DNA from: Myxococcota bacterium
Lineage (GTDB): Bacteria; Myxococcota_A; UBA796
Direction of reading: 5' to 3'
Length of the DNA: 64,000 nt
NCBI GenBank assembly: GCA_036156175.1
Contig: JAYZVA010000090.1
Coordinates: forward strand, 1,609-65,608
Program-made: the position numbers and the translations under genes
Notes under the pieces: model-generated
Told to the model about the DNA's origin: nothing
The model's input: the letters and a program-made list of their open reading frames with translations, nothing else
The model's database searches: none
In this document: in pieces, positions 12,644-32,454 of the stretch
How the letters are laid out: the number at the start of each line of letters is the position of its first letter
Numbering within the stretch: position 1 is the first letter of the stretch

Positions 12644-13264
12644 TCAGAGCCGCGAGAGGTCGCCTGCCCCTTCGCGGATGACGTCGACCTCCCCTTGTGT
12701 GAGGTCCAGGATGGTGGTGGCTTGACCCTCGATCTCGTTGCCGAGATCGATCACCAAGTCGAGGCCGTGACCAAACGTATCCATGATCTCGTAGCCCATG
12801 GTGAGGTTCTGGCCGTTGGGTGCGGTGGGAATGCTTGTGGCCACCAGCGGCCGACCAAACTGCTCCACAACGGCCATGACAATGGCCTCATCGGGCACCC
12901 GGAGCCCCACCACCTCGCGCTTGTTCTTTAGGATCTTCGGCAGCGTTCGGCTCGACGGAAGCAACACCGTGAAGTGCCCCGGGACGATTCGGTTCAACAC
13001 CTTGAACGCGAGCCCATCGACCCGCGCCATCTCGGTGGCCATCGAGATGCTGCTGCAAACCAACGAGAGCGGTTTCTTTTCGTTGCGCCCCGGCTTGAGG
13101 GCCATCATTCGTTGCACGCCCTTCTTCGAGCCCGCATCGCAGCAGAACATCCAGCTGCACCCTGCCGGCATCGCGACCACGCCGTTGCCGTTCAGCACCG
13201 AGCAGATCCGATCAAGGTGACGCTGGTTCGGCGGATCGTCGTGGGTGTAGATGTGTTCGCTCAT
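12644..13264 (-). CDS. L-threonylcarbamoyladenylate synthase (YrdC/Sua5 family)
   Basis: YrdC-like pattern: VVAMPAGCSWMFCCDA...ALKPGRNEKKPLSLVCSSI...PGHFTVLLP...VGLRVPD. Confidence 0.75.
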   Translation of the reverse strand: MSEHIYTHDDPPNQRHLDRICSVLNGNGVVAMPAGCSWMFCCDAGSKKGVQRMMALKPGRNEKKPLSLVCSSISMATEMARVDGLAFKVLNRIVPGHFTVLLPSSRTLPKILKNKREVVGLRVPDEAIVMAVVEQFGRPLVATSIPTAPNGQNLTMGYEIMDTFGHGLDLVIDLGNEIEGQATTILDLTQGEVDVIREGAGDLSRL

Positions 13265-13295
13265 GGTTCACCATTACCGAGGCGACGGCGTTCGC

Positions 13296-13313
13296 GCCAG
13301 TGGCTACACTGGC
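13296..13313. promoter_or_regulatory. Inverted repeat GCCAGTG-N4-CACTGGC in the 52-nt divergent region between the tsaC-like and DUF457 genes
   Basis: 7-bp perfect arms overlap the TACACT -10-like box (13305-13310). The core half-sites are the same as in the htpG-upstream palindrome. Confidence 0.4.
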
Positions 13314-13316
13314 AAT

Positions 13317-14309
13317 ATGGACCCCATCTCCCAAGCCGCCATCGGTGCGGCAGCCGCCCAATCGGGCGCGCCATCGACCCCGCTTCGCACGGGCTTGTGG
13401 ATGGGTGCCATTGGCGGAGCCATGCCGGACATCGACGTCTTGATCCGGTCGCCGGCCGACCCCTTGTTGTTCTTGGAGTACCACCGCCATTTCACGCACG
13501 CGCTGGCCTTCATTCCATTCGGCGGTCTGGCAGCGGCAGCCGTGGGTTCGCTGCTGACCCGGGGACGGCACCGCATCCGCGACCTGTGGCTGCCCGCCAC
13601 GCTGGGATGGGCCACCCACGGATTGCTGGACTCGTGCACGAGCTATGGAACCTTTCTGCTGTGGCCCTTCTCCGGCGAGCGGATTGCCTGGCACTCGGTG
13701 GCCATCATCGATCCGTTGCTGACCCTGCCGCTGGTGGCCGGCGTGCTCCTCGCTTGGCGTCGAGGGAACCGAATCCTCGCCCGACTCGCGCTGGGGTGGG
13801 CCCTTGCCTACCTGTGCTTTGGGGTTGTGCAGCGCGACCGCGCCGCATCCGCGCAGCAACGCCTCATCGAAGAGCGGGGTCACACCGCGCTCCGGTCCGA
13901 GGTCAAGCCCAGCATTGGGAACAACTTCTTGTTTCGAGCCTTCTACGAGCACGATGGCCGCTACTGGGCCGATGCCATTCGCGTGCCCTGGTTTGGGCCC
14001 ACCAAGATCTACGAGGGCGAGAGCATCCCCGTTTTGACCGTCGCCGAATTGATTGCCGACCTGCCGGCGATTCATGCCCGGGACGTCCAACGATTCGCCT
14101 TCTTCTCCAACAACTTCTTGGTCAATGACCCGCGGCATCCCGGATTCGTCAGCGACTTCCGTTACGCCGCATTGCCCAATCGCGTTGCGCCGCTGTGGGG
14201 CATCGATCTGGGCGGAGCCGAAGCCGATCGGCACCTACAATTCGAACGATTCAACCGCGTGTCGGCCCCGGACCGCGCCGAGTTCATGCGCCAGTTGAAG
14301 GGCGAGTAA
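13317..14309 (+). CDS. Membrane-bound metal-dependent hydrolase (DUF457/YdjM-YbcI family)
   Basis: MDPISQAAIGAA...PDIDVLIR...HRHFTHALAF...GWATHGLLDSCTSYGT. The ATG at 13317 lies 6 nt after a TACACT -10-like box. Confidence 0.75.
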   Translation: MDPISQAAIGAAAAQSGAPSTPLRTGLWMGAIGGAMPDIDVLIRSPADPLLFLEYHRHFTHALAFIPFGGLAAAAVGSLLTRGRHRIRDLWLPATLGWATHGLLDSCTSYGTFLLWPFSGERIAWHSVAIIDPLLTLPLVAGVLLAWRRGNRILARLALGWALAYLCFGVVQRDRAASAQQRLIEERGHTALRSEVKPSIGNNFLFRAFYEHDGRYWADAIRVPWFGPTKIYEGESIPVLTVAELIADLPAIHARDVQRFAFFSNNFLVNDPRHPGFVSDFRYAALPNRVAPLWGIDLGGAEADRHLQFERFNRVSAPDRAEFMRQLKGE

Positions 14310-21000: not shown

Positions 21001-22401
21001 TCAGTCTCCCGGCGGGTCGTCGCACACAAAGCCCTCGACCTCGAGTGCGTCGATGAGGTGCCAGTTGGTGCTTCCACCGGTCGCCGCGGTGAACCCCACG
21101 TAGGCGTCAAAGGGGACGAGTCCGTCGATCATCTCGTCGAGATACAGCACCTCATCCACCCAGAATTTCAGGTGCGGACCGGTGACTTCGAGCTTCGCCA
21201 CGTGCCACGCGCCGTCTTCCATTTCGGGGAGCGTTGCCCAGGCAACGGGCGCGTTCACGTCGCCGTCGATGTGGACGCTGACGTGGTCGAGCGCCGTCGG
21301 ATCCCAGTGCTCGCCGTTATACCAGGTGTCGACCTCGATCGACCACCCTGGAAGCCCGTAGTACCCGATGCCGCCCCCAGTGCCGCCAACAAACGACGTC
21401 ATTCGCGAGACATCGAGCATGGTGAGCGAGATGCCATCGGCGCCAGTGCCGCCCGAAACATAAAACTCCCACTCGATCTCGAGGAGATCCGAAATCACCG
21501 TCGACATGGTCTGAAAGGCGGTCCCCGCTTGGGTGGTGACCGGCGCCGTCAGCTCGACCCACTCGTTCACCGAATCCCACATGGCCGACCCCTCGAAGTG
21601 CCACGCCGCCAGGTCGATGCTGTCCTCGGTGTATCCCTCGTTCTGGCATATGGTTGTGCACGTGGACGCGGTCTGGCCGCAGGAATCGGTCACATCGACG
21701 CAGATCGTGTGGTCGCCACTCGACCGCGCTTCGCTGTTCCAAGCCAGCGAAGCGATGCCATCCGGCGCCGCGGGCAGCGACGCGACTTCACCGTCCACAT
21801 CGGAACTCCACGTCACGACAAGGTCGTTGGCCGCGTCGCGATCGTCGCTCACCGCGGCCTCGAAGACGGCAAACGCACCGGGCGAAATCACGTCACCGAC
21901 TCCGGGAGAAATCAGACTCACACTCGGCGGTGCGTCTTGCTCGACCCGAAGCGGAACCGTGCGCGCGGGGACGTCCGGGTCGTTGCTGTGAATCACCATC
22001 GTCCCCGTTCCACCCGACGACCGGGCGGTGATCAACAGCGATTCCTCCGCTGCGAGGGTGACCGGCAGCGGCCGGTGAGAAAGCGTCCACCCTTCGCCCT
22101 CGACGGCGAGGGACTCCACGACCAAGTCGCCCAACCCGATGTTGGTCACGGTGATCGTTTCTTCGTACAGCCCGCACTGGATCTCCCCGTCGACGCCGTC
22201 CGGAGTGACCATGGAGATCGGAAACTCGGGTTCCGTCGGCGGGTCATCGGGTTCACTCGGGGGCGGTGCAGCCGTGTCGACCGTGAGTTCATCGGCAGGG
22301 TTTGCGGGCTTGAAGTCGTGCACCATGTTGTACTCGGTGCACCCCAGGGCCAGTGCCGCCGCACCCGCGAGAACTCCCATGCCTGCTGCCCGACCACCCA
22401 T
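21001..22401 (-). CDS. Lipoprotein with Ig-like domains and a C-terminal L-type (legume/ConA-like) lectin domain
   Basis: Start MGGRAAGMGVLAGAAALALGC (lipobox). C-terminal sequence: GADGISLTM...GGTGGGIGYYGLPGWSIEVDTWYNGEHWDP...HVSVHIDG...GFTAATGGSTNWHLI, matching the ADG / GGxLGY / xExDT / H(V/I)xI pattern of L-type lectins. Confidence 0.65.
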   Translation of the reverse strand: MGGRAAGMGVLAGAAALALGCTEYNMVHDFKPANPADELTVDTAAPPPSEPDDPPTEPEFPISMVTPDGVDGEIQCGLYEETITVTNIGLGDLVVESLAVEGEGWTLSHRPLPVTLAAEESLLITARSSGGTGTMVIHSNDPDVPARTVPLRVEQDAPPSVSLISPGVGDVISPGAFAVFEAAVSDDRDAANDLVVTWSSDVDGEVASLPAAPDGIASLAWNSEARSSGDHTICVDVTDSCGQTASTCTTICQNEGYTEDSIDLAAWHFEGSAMWDSVNEWVELTAPVTTQAGTAFQTMSTVISDLLEIEWEFYVSGGTGADGISLTMLDVSRMTSFVGGTGGGIGYYGLPGWSIEVDTWYNGEHWDPTALDHVSVHIDGDVNAPVAWATLPEMEDGAWHVAKLEVTGPHLKFWVDEVLYLDEMIDGLVPFDAYVGFTAATGGSTNWHLIDALEVEGFVCDDPPGD

Positions 22402-22440
22402 GGCTTTAGAATGCACCCCGATGGGCCGCCTGGCAAGGAC

Positions 22441-22456
22441 CCACCGGTGGTATAAT
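22441..22456 (+). promoter_or_regulatory. Extended -10 promoter (TGgTATAAT) positioned for a leaderless transcript of the candidate selenoprotein gene
   Basis: TATAAT lies at 22451-22456, preceded by TGG (22448-22450) and the palindrome CCACCGGTGG (22441-22450). The ATG at 22464 lies 7 nt after the hexamer, and there is no Shine-Dalgarno sequence. Confidence 0.5.
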
Positions 22457-22463
22457 CGCAACG

Positions 22464-24335
22464 ATGGCTCTTCGACTGGTGGGATTCACGCTGCTGTTTG
22501 GGTGCACGGCTGCGCCCGAACAACCGTGCATGGATGGGTACTCACGGGGGGCCGATGGTCGGTGCATCAGCGAACCCGATGACGTCGCAAGCGAGACCCC
22601 GTCCGATCCGGCATCATCGGACACCGGCGAACCCATCAGCCTGGTGCGCGTGGAGTGCGCTCCAGACTCTCCCACCAACGAACCCAGCATTGAAATGATC
22701 GGGAAATACGACACCGACGACAACACCGAGCCGCCCGGATTGCTGATCGAGGCCCTCGACGGTGTGGTGGACCAAGAACGCTTCTGGGTCGTGGGCCAAG
22801 GCGGACTCTTGAGCTTCGACATCAGCGGCGATGTCCCGGAACTTGGCGACGTCTTCGGCGGCATGAGCGGGCGCTTCTACCGGCTGATGCTGGTTGATCA
22901 CGACCCGCCACTGGTCTACGCCACCCACCGGGATTCAGGCCTTCAAATCGTGGACCGCTCCGACCCATCCGACCTCCGGCTTGTGAAGACGGTGACGAAA
23001 GACGGCCTGGGCGGAATGGTTCAGGTCGGCGACCGGGTCTACGCCACGCAGCATGACGGAACGCTTGTGGTTTTTGACGCCACCGATCCGACCGCACCCG
23101 AGGAGCGTGCATCGATCGAGGCGCCGGGCCACCCGTGGAATGTCGTGGAAACCAACGGCTGGCTGTACACTGCAGACAACACCCGCGGGGTGGGCGCATT
23201 CAGCCTCTCCGACCCCGACGAGCCCGAGTTTGTCGGCCACACCGATCTGGGCAACGGCGTCCTGGACCTGGCGACGGACGGCACCCGGCTGTTCGCCGCG
23301 GCGGGTTCAGCCGGCCTGATCGTCCTCGACCTCAGCGACCCGTCTTCCCCCCGAGAGAGTGCCCGACTGTGGACGGGCTCGCCTGTGGTTGATGTCAGCG
23401 TATCGGACGCCATGGTCTGGCTGGTGGACCATGAAGCCGTGTGGGCCGTGGATGTTCGCCAGCCCGACCAGCCAACCGTGATTGGGCGCATGGAGACGCC
23501 CCGATTCGCGATGTCGGTCTGGGCCGAAGGAGACGAAGCATGGGTGGGTGACTGGACCGCAGTCGAAGGGTACCGAGCGCACCCCGAGCGCGCAGCCAGC
23601 ACGATTGTCGCTCACCCCGACACCCTGCGTCTGGCCTCCGACCGCCATGACGCCACCGTGCGGCTGGTCAATCTGGGGCCCCACGACGGCGCTCTTCTCC
23701 GCTGGGATGCCAACGAGACGGACGCCACCATCGGCGTGTCCTCGACCACGGTCGGCGCGCAGGACGGCGTGACGATCGCTGTGGACTGGCCCGAATCCAC
23801 TGGCAACGGGCAGGTCTGCCTCTTGACCAGCGACCCTTCCAACCCCACCGTCTCCATCAATGTGCAGCGTTCCGACCAACGGCTCAGTGTGCCGGTGGGG
23901 ACCGCAGCACCGGACTTTGAGCTGCCCACGCTCGATGGCGAGCGCCTGCGGCTCAGCGAGCAACTTGGGCATCCCGTGCTGCTCGTCTACTTCGCAACCT
24001 GGTGACCCGTGTGTCCGTCCGAGGTCTCGGACATCAGCGAACACATGTGGCGCGACTACCGCGACGATGGGCTGCGGGTGTGGGGCATCTCATCCACCGA
24101 CCGCGAAGCCGACCTCCGCCGATTTCGAGACCAACTCGGCGTTGACTTCCCCATTCTCTTCGATGCGGCCGGGGATGTGCACGCGCAGTGGCTGCAGGAA
24201 CTGGCGTTTCACTCTGCGGCCTACCCACAGGACTGGCTGATCGACCCCGAAGGACGCGTGGCGTACGCCAACAATCGCTACGAACCCGATGAGATCCGCG
24301 CGTTGCTTGACCAATGGTTTGACCGCGAGCCCTGA
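22464..24335 (+). CDS. Candidate selenoprotein. Domain order: lipobox, LVIVD-repeat beta-propeller, Ig-like domain, C-terminal TlpA/redoxin-like thioredoxin-fold domain with a U-P-V-C motif. The TGA at 24003-24005 is read as Sec.
   Basis: ORFs 22464-24005 and 24009-24335 are in the same frame and are separated only by the TGA. Read-through gives ...APDFELPTLDGERLRLSEQLGHPVLLVYFATW-[TGA]-PVCPSEVSDISEHMWRDYRDDGLRVWGISSTD..FPILFDAAGDV...DPEGRVAY, the canonical redoxin F-W-A-x-W-C-x-x-C block. A SECIS-like hairpin follows. LVIVD-type repeats are present (LQIVDRSDPSDL, LVVFDATDPTAP, GAFSLSDPDEP, LIVLDLSDPSSP). Confidence 0.7.
24009..24046 (+). promoter_or_regulatory. Candidate bacterial SECIS stem-loop directly downstream of the in-frame TGA
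   Basis: Upper stem GTCCGA (24017-24022) pairs with TCGGAC (24027-24032), with loop GGTC (24023-24026). A possible lower stem GTGTGT (24009-24014) pairs with ACACAT (24041-24046). The apex GAGGUCUC resembles the E. coli fdhF SECIS apex (GCAGGUCUGC, from memory). It sits 21-24 nt from the U of UGA. Confidence 0.55.
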
Positions 24336-25576: not shown

Positions 25577-28390
25577 ATGCGTGCGATGCTCATGGCAGGA
25601 CTGGCGGTTGCGGGGTGTTCGGACGCAGCCAAGACCATCGCGGACGCCATCGCTTCTGGCGGTGACACGGCAGCTGGAGCGGATGCAAGCCTTCCAGACA
25701 CGGCGGTCGATCCCGATGACGCGGACCCGTATTCGGCGTGCGTGGATGACCTGATTCCCCCCATGGAGTGGTTCGACGACCGACTCACGCAAACCGTGTC
25801 GGGCTCGATCGAGTTCGGGCAGACGCACGTGAGCCGTCCGGACGACGACCGCTGGGCACCGCCACTCATCGAGCACCGCGCGGCACTGCTGTTGTTTTCC
25901 CCGGACGAAGCCCTGAACGATGCGTCGGATGGCCGGCTCGCCGCGTGGCGGGGCAGCGAACTCATCGGCGTGATGCGCCTCGCCCCGCCCGCACAACTCC
26001 CAACCCCGCTGGAACAGGACCTCACTGAGGTTGCGCTCGAGCCCTGGTCGACAACGGCATGGAGCGCCGCGCTTCCGTGGCAGTGGGTCGAGGAGGGCAC
26101 GCGGCTGACCATCGGCATCGATGCGGGCGACGCGGTGCTCACCGCGGAGCACACACTCACGGACCTCGGTGCTCCGCAGCGGTTCACGCTCTCCCGCTCA
26201 AAAATGGTGCTGTTCGGGGAGGCGGATCACCCGACCACAACCGAGACCGCCGAGCGAATCGGGCGTGATTTCTTTGCAGCGGTTCCCGTTTCCTCCATGC
26301 GGTGGGTCGACTCGGCTCCGTGGCGGCTCGATGAGATCGTGGTCCGGGCCGACGGCGGGCCGGTGGTCGTGGCATCCGAGGGGGAGCGGCTCAGCCAAAC
26401 CTCAGACCCCGATCGCTGGCACATCCTGAAGCATCAGTTCGCGATTGCGATGAGCCTCGCGAACACCGGGCGCGGACTGGCAAAGACCACCGGAGGCGAC
26501 AGCTCGCCGTACGCCTTCGGAACCTCCGTTGGCTCGGGTTGGGTCCGCAATGATGACGGAACCTATTCGGACCTCGACAACGCACCGTACGCCGCCGGCT
26601 GGACGGGCTGGACCGCAATGTGGCTCGGCGAGTGCGCCAATGTCTTCATCCACGAGATTGGGCATTCCTTTACGCTCGCGCACTTCACAGCCGGGACCGG
26701 CAGCGCGTGGGGAATTGGCGACGAGTACCCGCTGGACGGTGTCAACTTGGAGGCCCACCCGTGGGGCTTTGACTCGACCCGACAGCGCTTCCGCACGTGG
26801 TACCGGGTCAATGCCGACGGACCGGTGGTCGCAGAGTCCGGCGGCTGGCAGGGAAAGAGGGACCCGATGAATGGCGGGGAGTCTCCAAACTCGGCCTCGT
26901 GCTTTCCCCAGTACACGCCGTACCATGCCTGGAAGATCCAAGACTGGTCGGAGACGCGGCCAACAATTGCGCGCATCGATGGCGAACCGGGCGTGTACAC
27001 TTGGGATGCCGAGTCGCGGACCATGGTCAAGACCGAGCCGGTCGAAGACGGCTCCATGGCGCCGGTCGCGGTCGATGTTCCCGTGGTGACCGTGATTGGG
27101 ACAATTGCCCACCGACCCGAGTCAAGCCGCGTCTACCCGCCCATTCATTGGGCGAGCGGCAATTCGTTTGACTTTGCAGCACCCGGCGATGCGACCCTTC
27201 ATCCCCACTATGCGGGGTCGAACTACTTCGTGGAGATCGAATACGCCGACGGGTCGAGCGAGCAACGCCTGATTGCGCAGCCAACGGTCCCCGCCACCGA
27301 CACGGACTTGTATCTCTGGAGCGTCAACCTGGAATCAGGGCGGAGTCCCGAGCGCGTCTCGCTGTTCCAGACCGTGGATCCCCATCCTGGCATGGACGTG
27401 GCCACGGCGTCGCTGCTTCACAGCGCACGCATCGACCCGCCAGACGAACCCGTCCCCGCGCCCGTCTTGATCGGAAACGGCTTTGTCGCGAACGGTGCCG
27501 TCTCGCTCACCGAGTGGTGCGAACCCGACATCAACTGTGCCCAGCGGGCGCGGTCAACGGAGTGGGCCACTGGGGCGACCCCGCTGCGCTTCACCGAGCG
27601 GGCGGATGCGCCCGACCCGGCCATTGCGTGCAGCGAAGACGGCTCGGTGACGGAACTGGTGGTGCCCATCCAAGACCAGAGTGGGGAACGCGCGTCGCTT
27701 GTGGTCCATGCGCAGCGAACCGTCCAAACCGCCACCCACCAATGGGCCGGTCCCATCAACGACGACACACCCTGGATCGACGCGGACAACGTTCGCCAAG
27801 GGCTCCGGGCCTGGGTGCCCCACGCACCCAATGCCGATCTGCCCGTCGGCACGTGGTCGAACGCCGACCCGTACACGCTCACTGCCCTGTCCGAGGGTTC
27901 CGCATTCGCCACGGTGCCCTTGGTCATCAACCTCACCATCTTGCCCACTGACGCGGTCGATGTGGGCGGCGGGTACGAAGGCCCGTCCGTCACCACGGAG
28001 GGCAGCTCCACGTTCTTCACGGTCGATGACCCCGCCATGGGACCAACCGAGGGCGTCTGGTGGGGCAGTTCGGCCGCAACGCCGCTGACCATTCCCGTTC
28101 GGAACACCGCGACCGGCGCCACCACGCAGCTTCGGCTCGATGGGTGGAAACGCAGCTGCGACCTCGGGTGGGGCACGTGGTGGTCTCTGAACTCCGCCCA
28201 GGTCGCCGATGGATCCTGTGAGCAGCGGCCTCAGCTCGCGGTCTCGTCGAGCGGAAATGAGCACCTTGAGTCGGGCGAAACCTACGCCAGCCCGCCATCG
28301 GGACCATTGATTCTCCGGGCCCACGCCTGGCATTTGGGCAAACGCATCGTCGATACTCGCGCGATTGAGGTCACCTACACCGTTCCCTGA
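25577..28390 (+). CDS. Large lipoprotein with an M66 (StcE/TagA)-like zinc metalloprotease domain
   Basis: Start MRAMLMAGLAVAGC (lipobox). FIHEIGHSFTLAHF is an HExxHxxxxxH motif, as in M66 HEVGHNYGLGH. About 450 C-terminal residues have no family that I recognise. Confidence 0.65.
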   Translation: MRAMLMAGLAVAGCSDAAKTIADAIASGGDTAAGADASLPDTAVDPDDADPYSACVDDLIPPMEWFDDRLTQTVSGSIEFGQTHVSRPDDDRWAPPLIEHRAALLLFSPDEALNDASDGRLAAWRGSELIGVMRLAPPAQLPTPLEQDLTEVALEPWSTTAWSAALPWQWVEEGTRLTIGIDAGDAVLTAEHTLTDLGAPQRFTLSRSKMVLFGEADHPTTTETAERIGRDFFAAVPVSSMRWVDSAPWRLDEIVVRADGGPVVVASEGERLSQTSDPDRWHILKHQFAIAMSLANTGRGLAKTTGGDSSPYAFGTSVGSGWVRNDDGTYSDLDNAPYAAGWTGWTAMWLGECANVFIHEIGHSFTLAHFTAGTGSAWGIGDEYPLDGVNLEAHPWGFDSTRQRFRTWYRVNADGPVVAESGGWQGKRDPMNGGESPNSASCFPQYTPYHAWKIQDWSETRPTIARIDGEPGVYTWDAESRTMVKTEPVEDGSMAPVAVDVPVVTVIGTIAHRPESSRVYPPIHWASGNSFDFAAPGDATLHPHYAGSNYFVEIEYADGSSEQRLIAQPTVPATDTDLYLWSVNLESGRSPERVSLFQTVDPHPGMDVATASLLHSARIDPPDEPVPAPVLIGNGFVANGAVSLTEWCEPDINCAQRARSTEWATGATPLRFTERADAPDPAIACSEDGSVTELVVPIQDQSGERASLVVHAQRTVQTATHQWAGPINDDTPWIDADNVRQGLRAWVPHAPNADLPVGTWSNADPYTLTALSEGSAFATVPLVINLTILPTDAVDVGGGYEGPSVTTEGSSTFFTVDDPAMGPTEGVWWGSSAATPLTIPVRNTATGATTQLRLDGWKRSCDLGWGTWWSLNSAQVADGSCEQRPQLAVSSSGNEHLESGETYASPPSGPLILRAHAWHLGKRIVDTRAIEVTYTVP

Positions 28391-28440
28391 GCACCCCATC
28401 GGTGTAGACGCGGACCCGCTCGTCATCTACCCTGTTGTCG

Positions 28441-29679
28441 ATGATCAATCGCCGCGAGTTCGGACTGCTTTCAATGGGGGCCCTGTGCCCGCTTCGCGCG
28501 GTCGCCGATGGCACCGCGGCAGAACGCAAATTCGTGTTCATCTTCAACGATGGAGGCTGGGACACCAGTCACGTCTTCACGCCACTCTTTGGGGTCAGTG
28601 GCGCCTACATCGAAGAAGGCGCCACCCGCCGCACAGCGAACGGCATCGAGTACATCGACCACCCTGCCCGACCGGCCGTTCGAGAGTTCTTCGAGCGTCA
28701 CGGTCAACAAGCGGCCGTCATCAATGGAATTGAGGTTCCATCGATTACGCATGAGCGGTGCCGAGAGCTCATCTTGACCGGATCCGGCGCGCTCGCGGAT
28801 GACTGGGGAGCGATCCTTGCGGGGCGCTCCGAGCGGAACCTTTTGCTCCCTCATGTGGTCCTGGATGGGCCGGCGTTCACCCAGACCTTTACGGATCGGG
28901 TGGTCCGAATCGGGGACGCGAACCAACTGCCCAGCTTGCTGGACAACACCGCATTCTCGCTGTCCGCGCTGCCGATCACCGAACTCGGGATCGACGCGGA
29001 GGCGATGGCCGATGCATTCGTGGCGGAACGGGCATCCCGTCACGGCGGCGCGTTCGGCACCGATTACCGAAACGCGCTGGACCGCATTGCCGAGCTCATG
29101 GCGTGGGACGACCTCCAGCTTGACAGCATGATCGCGGGTTGCGAGCGCGACATTGCGGCGGATTGCGCCCTGGCCTTTGACCTGTTCGAGGCCAACCTCA
29201 CCCGCTGCGCCATGCTTCGGTACAAAGGATGGTGCTCCGAAGGGTGGGACACCCACCAAGGCCTTGACCTGCAAGGGCGCAACTTTGGCGACCTGTTCGC
29301 GTACCTCAACGAGGCAATGGATGACCTCAATGGTCGGACCGCAGCATCCGGGAACCCCTTGGCCGATGAAGTCACCATCGTCGTGTTCAGCGAAATGGGG
29401 CGGGAGCCGACCCTGAACACGTGGGGCGGTCGGGACCATTGGACCTTCACAAGCGCCATGATGATCGGGTCGGGCGTCCGGGGGGGCACCGTCGTGGGCT
29501 CGCTGGATGAATCCGGCCGGGGGCGGCGGGTTGACCTCGACACAGGAGCGGCAACGGACGGCGGACGCCTCATGGGGCCCGATGACTTCGGCGCCACGCT
29601 GCTCGCCCTCGGCGGCGTGGACCCCGCCCCCTTCGTCGGCACCGAGCCCGAGCCGATTCGAGCGGTGCTCCAATCGTGA
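28441..29679 (+). CDS. DUF1501-family protein (sulfatase-like fold) with twin-arginine signal
   Basis: MINRREFGLLSMGALCPLRAVA (RR motif); FIFNDGGWD...SEMGREPTLN..GRDHW. A TACCCT box lies 7 nt upstream of the ATG. Confidence 0.75.
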   Translation: MINRREFGLLSMGALCPLRAVADGTAAERKFVFIFNDGGWDTSHVFTPLFGVSGAYIEEGATRRTANGIEYIDHPARPAVREFFERHGQQAAVINGIEVPSITHERCRELILTGSGALADDWGAILAGRSERNLLLPHVVLDGPAFTQTFTDRVVRIGDANQLPSLLDNTAFSLSALPITELGIDAEAMADAFVAERASRHGGAFGTDYRNALDRIAELMAWDDLQLDSMIAGCERDIAADCALAFDLFEANLTRCAMLRYKGWCSEGWDTHQGLDLQGRNFGDLFAYLNEAMDDLNGRTAASGNPLADEVTIVVFSEMGREPTLNTWGGRDHWTFTSAMMIGSGVRGGTVVGSLDESGRGRRVDLDTGAATDGGRLMGPDDFGATLLALGGVDPAPFVGTEPEPIRAVLQS

Positions 29680-30026
29680 TCTGGGCTTTGCTGCTGTCGT
29701 GTGCTGAACCGTCGGAAGTCGACTCGGCGGGCGCCCTTTTGGACACGGGTACGGCAGCCGAGGAGGCCTGCGATTCCGGCTGGAACAGCTGGGCCGGCGG
29801 CTTCTTCACAACCTACTGCACGTCTTGCCACCACCCCAACAGCGCGAACCGACATGGGGCGCCCGAAGGGATGAACTTTCACACCAAGCTGGACGCCGTC
29901 AGCCACCTCGACCGCGTGCGGGTGCGGGTCTTGTCGATGAAAGACATGCCGCTGGGTGGTGGGGTGCCCGAACCCGAGTTGGTTCGACTGGCCGCATGGG
30001 CCGACTGCGTGGATGGTGGGCCGTGA
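29676..30026 (+). CDS. Stand-alone planctomycete-type cytochrome c domain (PSCyt1-like) lipoprotein
   Basis: The GTG start overlaps the DUF1501 stop (GTGA). MIWALLLSCAEP lipobox; heme motif YCTSCHH; ...LSMKDMPLGG..PEPELVRLAAWADCV matches the PSCyt C..CH ... MP ... W pattern. Confidence 0.65.
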   Translation: MIWALLLSCAEPSEVDSAGALLDTGTAAEEACDSGWNSWAGGFFTTYCTSCHHPNSANRHGAPEGMNFHTKLDAVSHLDRVRVRVLSMKDMPLGGGVPEPELVRLAAWADCVDGGP

Positions 30027-30853
30027 TTCTGTGGCTGCTCGCCTGCGCGGGAACGCCAACCGTCACCGAACGCGCCTCCCCCCACGCCCAACCCGGAACG
30101 GCACCCAGCACCGATACCGGTGAACCCGGGTTGCCCGCGGTCGCCGTGGAAGAACTGGAGCCCTCATGGAGCCCCGAGGACGTCGGCGAACGCCTGGCCA
30201 CGGCGCTGGGCCAGATGCCGGATCCCACCGAAGCGGTCAACACCTATGCCAACTTGATGCGTCAAGGCGATGCGGTCTGCCCGGGTTCGGAACGGGTGAT
30301 CGTCGACACCTGGCTGTATGGGTGTGATGCATCCACCGGGTACAGCTTCGCGGGGGTCACCGACTGGCTCACCGGTGAATACGATGTCGCCGGGCAGCCG
30401 ATGGAGATGGAAGGCGTCGCCGGTGATTTCTGGATCGACACCCCAGAGGGACACCGACTGGAGGGCGGCGGAAACGCGGTGGTGCTCACCGATGGTTCGA
30501 CCTGGATCGGCGATCTCACGGGAAGCTGGCGATACTCCGGCGGCAGCGACTGGTTCGCGTACGGCTTCAGCGGCACCGTGTCGATCCAGCACCTGCCGGG
30601 ATTGTTCACCCTCGCGGAAGGGGCAGCCGATGTGCTCGGGACCCACATGGCACTGCACGAACTGATGCTCCCCGATGCCTGCAACGGCGGAGCCCAAGGC
30701 GATCTTTCCCTGCGCGACCCCAATGGCGGGTGGTACCGAATTGCCTTTGAAGGCTGCACGGAGTGCGGGCCCATCACCTTCGAGGGCACCCCAATCGGCG
30801 AGGCATGCGTCGACTTTGGGCCCTTCTTGGCGCGCATCGGGAGCTGGCCATGA
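30023..30853 (+). CDS. Hypothetical lipoprotein
   Basis: The GTG start overlaps the upstream stop (GTGA at 30023-30026). VILWLLACAGTP lipobox. I recognised no family. Confidence 0.55.
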   Translation: MILWLLACAGTPTVTERASPHAQPGTAPSTDTGEPGLPAVAVEELEPSWSPEDVGERLATALGQMPDPTEAVNTYANLMRQGDAVCPGSERVIVDTWLYGCDASTGYSFAGVTDWLTGEYDVAGQPMEMEGVAGDFWIDTPEGHRLEGGGNAVVLTDGSTWIGDLTGSWRYSGGSDWFAYGFSGTVSIQHLPGLFTLAEGAADVLGTHMALHELMLPDACNGGAQGDLSLRDPNGGWYRIAFEGCTECGPITFEGTPIGEACVDFGPFLARIGSWP

Positions 30854-32454
30854 TTGTCGCGCTCTGGCTCGCCTGCACCTCGGCGGACCCCGAACCATCG
30901 GCCGGTCACCGGGGCACCGCCGACGCCATCGAAGACACCGCGTCGGGCTCGCTTCCCCGGGCTCGATTGGACGATGCCGCATGGTTGCGACGCGTCAGCT
31001 TCGATCTCCGGGGCGTGCCGCCAACCACCGCCGAACTGGACGAGTTGAACGACGACCCTTCGCTTGCCCCCAACCTTCGGGACGCGATGATGCACAGCGC
31101 GCGCTTCGAGTCGCGAATGGTGAACGCGCTGGCGGAGCGGTGGCACACCCGAGTCGACGAGTTCGACATCGTCGCCTTCGACTACGGCTTGCCTTCGAGT
31201 GCGGAATACGAATTCGAGCGGGCGGTGGGCGAGGAACCCCTGCGGCTCTTGGCCCGCATCATCGCCACCGATCGGCCCTGGACCGACGCGGTGCTGGCGG
31301 ACTGGACGATGGCCACCCCGTTGCTTGGCGAGATTTGGCCCATCGACTACCCCAGCGGCGAGTCCGGGTGGCAGCCCGCTCGGTACACCGACGGCAGGCC
31401 TTCAGCCGGCGTGCTCTCCACCAACGGGCTGTGGTGGCGGTACACGACGACCGACTCGAACATGAACCGCGGACGCGCTGCAGCCATCTCGCGACTTCTG
31501 CTGTGCGAAGACTACCTGATCCGCCCGGTGGCGTTTTCGGAAGCCGACACATCGGGCACCACCACCGCCGATGCGGCCCAGGAAGATCCGTACTGTCTGG
31601 CCTGCCACTCCAGCCTCGACCCCATCGCGGCATCCCTGTTTGGGTTTTGGTGGATGTCGCTGTATTCGCGGATTGAGGAGACGACCTACCACCCCGAACG
31701 CGAGGCGCTCTGGGAACAATACCTGGGCGTCAGCCCTGGCTGGTACGGGGAACCGATCAGCGGACTGAGTCAACTGGGCCCGTCCATCGCGAATGACAGC
31801 CGCTTCTTTTCGTGCGCGGTGGAATCGATGGCCGAGTTCGTCTGGCGTCGCCCGGTCACCGCAGACGATTCCGATGCCATCGAGTCGCTGCGACGCGGGT
31901 TCTTGGAGGGCGGTGCCGTCGTGCGTCCACTGATTGGCGCGCTGACGGAGGCCGACGCGTACCACGATGCCGAGCCGCGCATGATGACCCACGACCAGTT
32001 TGCTGACACCGTCGAGGCGCTCACTGGGTTCCGGTGGACGCACGAGGGGTACGACATGCTCGACACCGACCGATTGGGGCACCGGCTCCTGCTGGGAGGC
32101 GTGGATGGCATTGCCAATCGCGCACCGCAAGATCGACCGGGGCTCACCTGGGCACTGGTGGTCAAGCGGACGGCGGAGGCCGCCGCATCGCATGCGGTCG
32201 AGCGGGAGCTGGTCGACGGCGGCGAGCGGCGTCTCTTTCGGTTCGTGACCTTGGACACCGTGCCCGATGACGACGACTTCGAACGCGAACTTCGCGGATT
32301 TCACCGGGGCTTCTACAGCCGGGATGCGCCCGATGAATGGGTCGACGAGATGCGCGAGCTCTGGTCGGCGTTGGCGGCCATCGGCACGCCAACCGAAGCG
32401 TGGCAGGCGACCGTGTCCGTGATGATTCGGGACCCGGCATTTTTGACGCACTGA
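30850..32454 (+). CDS. DUF1549/DUF1553-like protein (the usual partner family of DUF1501), lipoprotein
   Basis: The ATG overlaps the upstream stop (ATGA). MIVALWLACTS lipobox. WLRRVSFDLRGVPPTTAELDEL is a DUF1549-like block, and DPYCLACHSSLDPIAASLFGFW is a C..CH..DP block. Confidence 0.6.
   Translation: MIVALWLACTSADPEPSAGHRGTADAIEDTASGSLPRARLDDAAWLRRVSFDLRGVPPTTAELDELNDDPSLAPNLRDAMMHSARFESRMVNALAERWHTRVDEFDIVAFDYGLPSSAEYEFERAVGEEPLRLLARIIATDRPWTDAVLADWTMATPLLGEIWPIDYPSGESGWQPARYTDGRPSAGVLSTNGLWWRYTTTDSNMNRGRAAAISRLLLCEDYLIRPVAFSEADTSGTTTADAAQEDPYCLACHSSLDPIAASLFGFWWMSLYSRIEETTYHPEREALWEQYLGVSPGWYGEPISGLSQLGPSIANDSRFFSCAVESMAEFVWRRPVTADDSDAIESLRRGFLEGGAVVRPLIGALTEADAYHDAEPRMMTHDQFADTVEALTGFRWTHEGYDMLDTDRLGHRLLLGGVDGIANRAPQDRPGLTWALVVKRTAEAAASHAVERELVDGGERRLFRFVTLDTVPDDDDFERELRGFHRGFYSRDAPDEWVDEMRELWSALAAIGTPTEAWQATVSVMIRDPAFLTH

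Follow-up and report, generated by a model that had tools for sequence, protein, structure and literature searches.

The DUF1501/PSCyt system of the Planctomycetes-Verrucomicrobia-Chlamydiae (PVC) bacteria has been described as membrane-targeted, dependent on twin-arginine translocation (Tat), probably engaged in electron transport, and of unknown function (Kamneva et al. 2012, PMC3542564). Carbohydrate-binding modules and sulfatases are linked to PSCyt genes in the genomes of these bacteria (PMC5615132), and according to the legend of Figure S7 in He et al. 2017, DUF1501 genes cluster with PSCyt2 genes while DUF1552 genes cluster with PSCyt3 genes. Few families of unknown function have expanded as much in Planctomycetes and Verrucomicrobia as the DUF1501/PSCyt genes, and our search of the literature on the function of DUF1501, DUF1549, DUF1553, DUF1552, DUF1588, DUF1592 and DUF1800 returned genomic descriptions alone, with no paper that assigns a function. 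Here we analyse a module of four genes, a variant of this known but uncharacterised system, that is located in a 64-kb stretch of DNA (below, the window) from an uncultured marine member of the Myxococcota, where the G+C content of the region is 65%.

The four genes are denoted D (the DUF1501 protein), c (a small, CxxCH-containing putative lipoprotein), L (a beta-rich putative lipoprotein) and P (a putative lipoprotein of the PSCyt/PSD type). They belong to one translationally coupled operon, and we hold with moderate confidence that their products most likely assemble into a haem/metalloenzyme complex of the DUF1501/PSCyt type, tethered to a membrane on its periplasmic side. The argument for this rests on how the module is arranged in related genomes and on which residues of its proteins have been kept.

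Results

Four overlapping genes

All four genes are on the forward strand. D (28441-29679) encodes a protein of 412 residues that belongs to the DUF1501 family and starts with the Tat signal MINRREFGL. It is followed by c (29676-30026), which encodes a putative lipoprotein of 116 residues resembling mono-haem cytochromes c, with a CxxCH and a Met-Pro motif, by L (30023-30853), which encodes a beta-rich, Cys-rich putative lipoprotein of 276 residues from an undescribed family and is a core subunit, and by P (30850-32454), which encodes an all-alpha putative lipoprotein of 534 residues from the PSCyt/PSD superfamily, with matches to PSCyt2 and PSD2 and with a CxxCH motif of its own. When the junctions are read directly, D and c share the start/stop overlap GTGA at 29676-29679 (caatcGTGAtct), c and L share GTGA at 30023-30026 (ggccGTGAttc), and L and P share ATGA at 30850-30853 (ggccATGAttg).

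These overlaps, and the five open reading frames (ORFs) that are obtained when a protease gene upstream of D is included, lie exactly where the initial annotation had placed them. The five lengths (937, 412, 116, 276 and 534 residues) are also those of the consecutive calls MEC8192813-817 made by the NCBI Prokaryotic Genome Annotation Pipeline in a Myxococcota metagenome-assembled genome (MAG), where the products are named 'M66 family metalloprotease', 'DUF1501 domain-containing protein', 'hypothetical protein' (twice) and 'DUF1549 domain-containing protein'. A scan of NCBIfam gave no family for any of the five proteins, scans of the window for tRNA genes and Rfam families were empty, and no second copy of the module was found in the window with hidden Markov models (HMMs) for c, L and P combined with a search for D.

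The module in related genomes

There are more than 1300 homologues of P, and a scan with the P alignment, taking one genome per species, confirmed 270 loci among genome representatives; the best 80 of these 270 come from about 45 MAGs. D and the protease then served as queries on 91 loci (L001-L090 and the window), along with the HMMs of c, L and P. Almost without exception, L, P and D lie side by side at these loci, and the gene orders that occur, D-c-L-P, L-P-D-c, c-L-P-D and L-P-D, can all be derived from D>c>L>P by cyclic rotation. The exceptions are L035, L063, L075 and L085, where L is set apart or lies on the other strand.

The overlaps recur together with the gene order. A four-nucleotide overlap joins L to P in 68 of 85 cases, D to c in 19 of 25, c to L in 15 of 30 and, where c is missing between them, D to L in 7 of 9, while the P>D junction has an overlap of one nucleotide in 25 of 66 cases and of four nucleotides in another 7. 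Overlaps that are repeated in this way at about 90 related loci are not due to chance, and the chaining of the genes by translational-coupling overlaps, first noted for the window, is conserved among the related modules.

A split layout with overlapping ORFs would also be seen if a canonical fused PSCyt1-PSCyt2-PSD1 gene had been broken by frameshifts or assembly errors, so that the overlaps came from gene calling. High-GC MAG sequence does contain many spurious ORFs, and there is at least one in-frame TGA elsewhere in the window. However, the split layout, with a separate signal peptide for each protein, recurs at about 90 independent loci spread over about 45 assemblies, c never matches PSCyt1, P is devoid of PSD1, and a fused form of PSCyt1 and P was found neither by a motif hunt across all fetched loci nor among the 120 homologues of c that were listed, which range from 96 to 161 residues. 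The probability of such an artefact is negligible, and this explanation is in effect refuted.

The three genes L, P and D occur together at about 90 loci, while c is present in 25 of the 56 modules that are complete and have flanking sequence. L-P-D is, in other words, the conserved core of the module and c is an accessory, so that L, which the initial annotation had regarded as an extra lipoprotein inserted into a known arrangement, belongs to the core, directly upstream of P at nearly all loci. At five loci, c and L are encoded by a single ORF of about 345-375 codons with c at the N-terminus (L017, 8403-9929; L056, 1827-3062; L060, 2558-3793; L061, 3-1058; L062, 8655-9872), so that in these fusions the physical partner of c is L and not P.

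Pairwise distances correlate strongly among L, P and D (r = 0.75-0.85 between their matrices) and moderately between c and the other proteins (r = 0.45-0.60), values that were reached in 0 of 500 permutations. From this follows that the modules duplicate and diverge as units. Single MAGs contain up to four of the best 80 loci, and several contain three or four. To exemplify, L021 (12.5 kb) has three L-P-D modules within 12 kb, two in tandem and one divergent, L057 has two modules, and L063 has two or three. This degree of paralogy is like that reported for Planctomycetes. No conserved neighbour gene outside the module was found across the loci examined.

The contigs that carry modules are labelled by NCBI as Myxococcota or Deltaproteobacteria, but also as taxa that are implausible. 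L012, L015, L023, L030, L036, L087 and others bear labels such as 'uncultured Enterobacterales', 'Klebsiella pneumoniae', 'Cognaticolwellia sp.' and 'Alphaproteobacteria', which are probably wrong taxonomic assignments of MAGs. All carriers found are uncultured MAGs, and the suggestion that the locus could serve as a tractable model is for this reason doubtful.

The PSCyt/PSD protein has a CxxCH motif of its own

P matches PSCyt2/DUF1549 (PF07583) with 32.7 bits, where the cut-off is 29.8 and model positions 14-81 of 209 are aligned, and PSD2/DUF1585 (PF07624) with 27.5 bits, where the cut-off is 25.8. Its match to PSCyt3/DUF1588 (PF07627), 22.5 bits, is below the cut-off of 27, as are those to PSD5 and PSD4. 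The domains come in the order PSD4-PSCyt3-PSD2 (residues 60-162, 186-263 and 300-370), and by these matches the body of P is of the DUF1592/DUF1588/DUF1585 type. The same pattern is seen among 42 homologues, all of which match PSCyt2, although weakly, while 40 match PSCyt3, 36 PSD2 and 29 PSD4. PSD1/DUF1553 (PF07587) gives no match to P of the window at E ≤ 1, and is matched by three of the 42 homologues at E ≤ 0.01. The earlier description of P as DUF1549/DUF1553-like is reduced to a DUF1549 fragment in its first half and falls in its second.

The initial annotation had assigned the haem motif to the free-standing protein c alone. P has the motif CLACH at 31594-31608, as part of CLACHSSLDP (31594-31623) inside the PSCyt3 match, and C249, C252 and H253 of this motif are, together with H281 (in YHxERE), C219 and C322, invariant in 85 of 85 homologues. 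This means that the module holds two CxxCH proteins, not one.

In the AlphaFold2 (AF2) model, P is all-alpha with a confidence (predicted local distance difference test, pLDDT) of 80. Confidence exceeds 90 outside residues 200-301 (about 31447-31752) and is lowest, 40-60, within this stretch, which is at the same time the most conserved part of the protein, with CxxCH, FGFW and YHxERE. Given the model, residues 200-301 may fold only around a cofactor. A Foldseek search of the PDB with P gave no match, cytochromes included, and a profile of the CxxCH region gave a weak match to cytochrome c555 (E = 0.019).

The small protein c is a separate family

The motifs of c are CTSCH (29817-29831) and MPLGGG (29946-29963), the latter with Met-Pro at 29946-29951. 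A search with the single sequence finds 22 homologues with 39-99% identity, and a profile search finds 253, where the 120 among the matches listed are all free-standing proteins of 96-161 residues without a Pfam domain. C48, C51, H52, M91 and P92 are invariant in 38 of 38 aligned members, 37 of the 38 have kept the lipobox Cys, 37 have kept a Cys at the C-terminus, and a segment RxGAPxG is conserved as well. It had been proposed that this ORF is a free-standing, conserved protein with CxxCH, and these numbers bear that out.

The proposed resemblance to the planctomycete PSCyt1 domain does not hold. When c of the window and 21 of its homologues were scanned against Pfam, none of the 22 matched PSCyt1 (PF07635) even at E ≤ 10, which rules out this identity, and c itself matches no Pfam family. 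Instead, there are weak matches to class-I cytochromes c. Cytochrome_CBB3 is matched by 9 of the 22 members, with a best E value of 0.0011 and all below the cut-off, Cytochrom_C is matched below threshold, and the family profile matches the haem-binding helix of CcoP in the PDB (E = 5e-4). By these searches, c is a free-standing family of its own for which there is no family model, and its conservation pattern fits a mono-haem cytochrome c with His/Met ligands and a predicted covalent haem.

One further observation concerns cytochrome-like genes beside the module. In L059, a module without c is immediately followed by an ORF of 369 codons (12774-13880, forward strand) that has two CxxCH motifs, CNDCH and CASCH. 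This ORF bears no relation to the c family, and its product may stand in as the cytochrome partner.

The DUF1501 protein and the new putative lipoprotein family

D matches DUF1501 (PF07394) with E = 1.8e-17 and 64 bits, where the cut-off is 27 and model positions 226-342 of 390 are aligned. All 43 homologues scanned match this family (best E = 5.8e-28) and none of the 43 matches DUF1552. Its N-terminus, MINRREFGL, contains the Tat motif NRREFGL, two adjacent arginines occur within the first 15 residues of 73 of 79 homologues, and none of the 79 has a lipobox. The identification of D as a DUF1501 protein with a Tat signal is in this way corroborated. The near-invariant residues D41, H104, C107, D270, H272, E318 and H333 are compatible with a metal site, but are no proof of one.

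L has no match in Pfam or NCBIfam. An exhaustive HMMER search finds 350 cluster representatives, all of about 250-300 residues, which share the lipobox Cys and six further Cys residues (in GDxxCPG, GC, CxxC and other contexts) as well as the motif RDPxGxW. The conserved Cys residues are C8, C86, C101, C220, C245, C248 and C262, five of which were re-checked and are kept in at least 95% of the sequences. The AF2 model of L, with a pLDDT of 93.6, consists of two helices and then a long run of beta-hairpins. A Foldseek search of the PDB with L gave nothing significant, the best matches being sheets of the MORN and OspA kinds with E of about 0.07 and template-modelling scores below 0.2.

As putative signal peptides, c begins with MIWALLLSC (29676-29702), L with MILWLLAC (30023-30046) and P with MIVALWLAC (30850-30876). 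An early, lipobox-like Cys is present in 37 of 42 homologues of c, 69 of 83 of L and 78 of 88 of P, and in the alignments the lipobox Cys is conserved in 37 of 38, 80 of 80 and 84 of 85 sequences, respectively.

Proposed mechanism

Consider how such a set of proteins could work. D would be exported in its folded state by the Tat system and would be the catalytic subunit, with a metal centre built from Asp, His, Cys and Glu residues. P would be a helical lipoprotein and the obligate partner of D, probably with a covalent haem at its CxxCH motif, for which H281 is the candidate distal ligand. L would be a disulfide-rich beta scaffold, and c, a small lipoprotein cytochrome with His/Met ligands, would dock through L and pass electrons between the respiratory chain and the haem of P and the site in D. 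In this scheme L, P and D would make up the core, with c as an optional electron-transfer adaptor, and paralogous modules in the same genome would probably differ in substrate. That the proteins assemble physically and carry haem and metal, and which way the electrons run, is what we infer here from conserved residues and gene arrangement.

A number of points weigh against a redox-active, membrane-tethered complex. Thirty-one of the 56 complete modules, about 55%, lack c, from which it follows that electron input through c is not essential to the core, and another CxxCH ORF is found near just two of these 31, one of which is probably spurious. Co-diversification of the proteins is also expected from co-inheritance in an operon alone. 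The AF2 model of P is least confident exactly at the CxxCH motif (residues 223-272), and the PDB offers neither a homologue nor a structural counterpart of D, L or P on which a mechanism could be anchored, as judged by sequence and profile searches for D and by Foldseek for L and P. The signal sequences of c, L and P, like those of many of their homologues, have only 7-9 residues before the Cys and no basic n-region. Because these signal peptides are unusually short, and the c ORF offers no earlier ATG, GTG or TTG start, the lipoprotein status of the three proteins is something that we infer. DUF1501 is, we take it, placed with the alkaline-phosphatase-like hydrolases in the Pfam clans, and such hydrolases normally need no electrons.

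These points lead to a different account, in which D would be an ordinary esterase of the alkaline-phosphatase superfamily for the scavenging of phosphate or sulfate esters. P would then be a lid that binds substrate or regulates, with a CxxCH motif that serves a metal or a disulfide instead of haem, and L would be a scaffold, with c as a loosely associated passenger. It is the high fraction of modules without c that keeps alive this account of D as a plain esterase with P as its non-redox lid, and the lack of a confident cytochrome-like fold at the CxxCH motif of P, together with the lack of a cytochrome among Foldseek matches, speaks in the same direction. Export by the Tat system also serves the metal phosphatases PhoD and PhoX. 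Furthermore, PSCyt genes are neighbours of sulfatase genes in PVC genomes (PMC5615132). On the other side, the CxxCH motif is invariant in 85 of 85 P proteins with its His included, its segment has the weak match to cytochrome c555, and a gene that is coupled by four nucleotides at 19 of 25 D>c junctions and fused to L at five loci does not behave as a passenger. We consider the hydrolase with non-redox partners rather unlikely, and retain the haem/metalloenzyme complex as the preferred interpretation.

A wider claim can be made, if tentatively. L-P-D, with or without c, is possibly an unrecognised class of membrane-tethered periplasmic enzyme, in which DUF1501, as an alkaline-phosphatase-like metalloprotein, would be wired to one or two c-type haems for chemistry that is redox-coupled and not purely hydrolytic, and in which L would be a new cytochrome-recruiting fold. 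If this is true, the smallest, fully split form would be the minimal functional core of the DUF1501/PSCyt superfamily in Planctomycetes, Verrucomicrobia and Myxococcota.

The upstream protease

The gene upstream of D (25577-28390, forward strand) encodes a metalloprotease of 937 residues, similar to StcE and TagA and a putative lipoprotein. It matches Peptidase_M66 with E = 3e-23 and 82.6 bits (cut-off 20.6) and TagA with 35.5 bits (cut-off 25), has the zinc motif HEIGHSFTLAH (HExxHxxxxxH) at 26651-26683 and matches StcE (PDB 3UJZ) with E = 5.6e-10. The gap between this gene and D is 50 nucleotides, so that a StcE-like M66 protease is indeed present at the distance first reported. Like the mucinase-type M66 enzymes StcE and TagA, the protein has M66 and TagA domains, a putative lipoprotein signal and the HExxHxxxxxH motif, and unlike them it ends in a long stretch of about 340 uncharacterised residues.

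The position of the protease raises the question of whether it and the four genes constitute one functional unit, in which the protease would, for instance, release or process substrates for the module. It lies on the same strand as D with no terminator-like site in between, a scan of the 50-nucleotide gap for promoters and terminators together with its folding having given nothing above shuffled controls. Moreover, the arrangement recurs in L091, the relative whose P is 75% identical, where an M66 gene with 68% identity is also 50 nucleotides upstream of D. However, none of the other approximately 90 module loci has an M66 homologue, and loci with P identities of 63% or less are all without the protease. 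The genes downstream of the module in L091 (FMN_red, an MTS methyltransferase, MORN_2 and an acyltransferase of the HGSNAT type) also come in the same order as in the window. Because synteny extends to these genes, the linkage reflects recent common ancestry and not selection. A functional unit of protease and module is improbable, and the adjacency is probably best explained by shared ancestry, with the protease as a neighbour outside the module rather than, as had been hinted, its partner. Co-transcription of the protease with the module in this particular genome is possible.

Other genes in the window

Two genes further upstream are described for completeness. An LVIVD-repeat protein (22464-24005, within 22464-24335, forward strand) ends at an in-frame TGA (24003-24005), after which an AhpC/TSA-Redoxin domain continues in the same frame (24009-24335). 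Read-through gives ...LLVYFATW-[TGA]-PVCPSEV, where the TGA takes the place of the first Cys in a WCxxC motif of the TlpA/ResA type, and by its sequence context 22464-24335 probably encodes a thiol-disulfide oxidoreductase with selenocysteine (UxxC). Next comes a hairpin, GUCCGA-GGUC-UCGGAC. Its energy is no better than that of shuffled controls (z = -0.22), and it has no match in Rfam. Divergent from this gene, 21001-22461 on the reverse strand encodes a secreted protein of 486 residues with a putative legume-lectin-like beta-barrel domain, whose 62.5 bits stay below the Pfam cut-off of 78.3.

Discussion

What is new here is, first, that a system regarded as a signature of PVC bacteria is extended to another phylum and is equally expanded in uncultured Myxococcota. 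Second, the core in Myxococcota consists of D, P with its CxxCH motif, and L, all as separate small proteins, while the cytochrome is a detachable adaptor that is proposed to dock through L. The four small secreted proteins lend themselves to use as testable constructs.

When the parts are compared with known proteins, c is like the class-I cytochromes c, such as the haem domains of CcoP and the c5/c555 proteins, in that it has CxxCH on an N-terminal helix, a distal Met-Pro, a length of about 100 residues and weak profile matches to them. It is unlike them in that it stays below all Pfam cut-offs and has a putative lipoprotein anchor, the RxGAPxG segment and a C-terminal Cys, and in that it always occurs inside a module with D, L and P.

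When the module as a whole is compared, three described arrangements come near to it. The gene pairs of DUF1800 and DUF1501 that occur in Proteobacteria and Actinobacteria also set a Tat-signal DUF1501 protein beside a helical partner; P, however, has no match to DUF1800, and to our knowledge neither L nor c is part of these pairs. With the module that combines DUF1552 with PSCyt3 and PSD2-5 (DUF1588/1585/1587/1592/1595; He et al. 2017, Figure S7), the present one shares the PSD4-PSCyt3-PSD2 order of P and a CxxCHxxxDP motif inside the PSCyt3 match. It differs in that the partner is DUF1501 in 43 of 43 cases and never DUF1552, and in that P has a PSCyt2 fragment.

The third is the PVC module of DUF1501 and PSCyt1/PSCyt2/PSD1 (PMC3542564), which likewise occurs in multiple copies per genome and combines a DUF1501 protein that has a Tat signal with a PSCyt/PSD protein that bears CxxCH; the N-terminal RRxSxDLRGxxP segment of P matches PSCyt2. 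The Myxococcota module has neither PSCyt1 nor PSD1, its P is a putative lipoprotein of about 530 residues instead of about 800-1100, L is added as an obligatory subunit, the cytochrome c is separate and optional, and the carriers are Myxococcota MAGs. The four-gene cluster published for PVC bacteria is also composed differently, from DUF1501, a PPC-like protein, PSCyt1/Big_2/PSCyt2/PSD1 and PSCyt1/WD40 (PMC3542564). Since P mixes PSCyt2 and PSCyt3 signatures and has DUF1501 as its partner, the module bridges the two pair types that the Figure S7 legend of He et al. sets apart.

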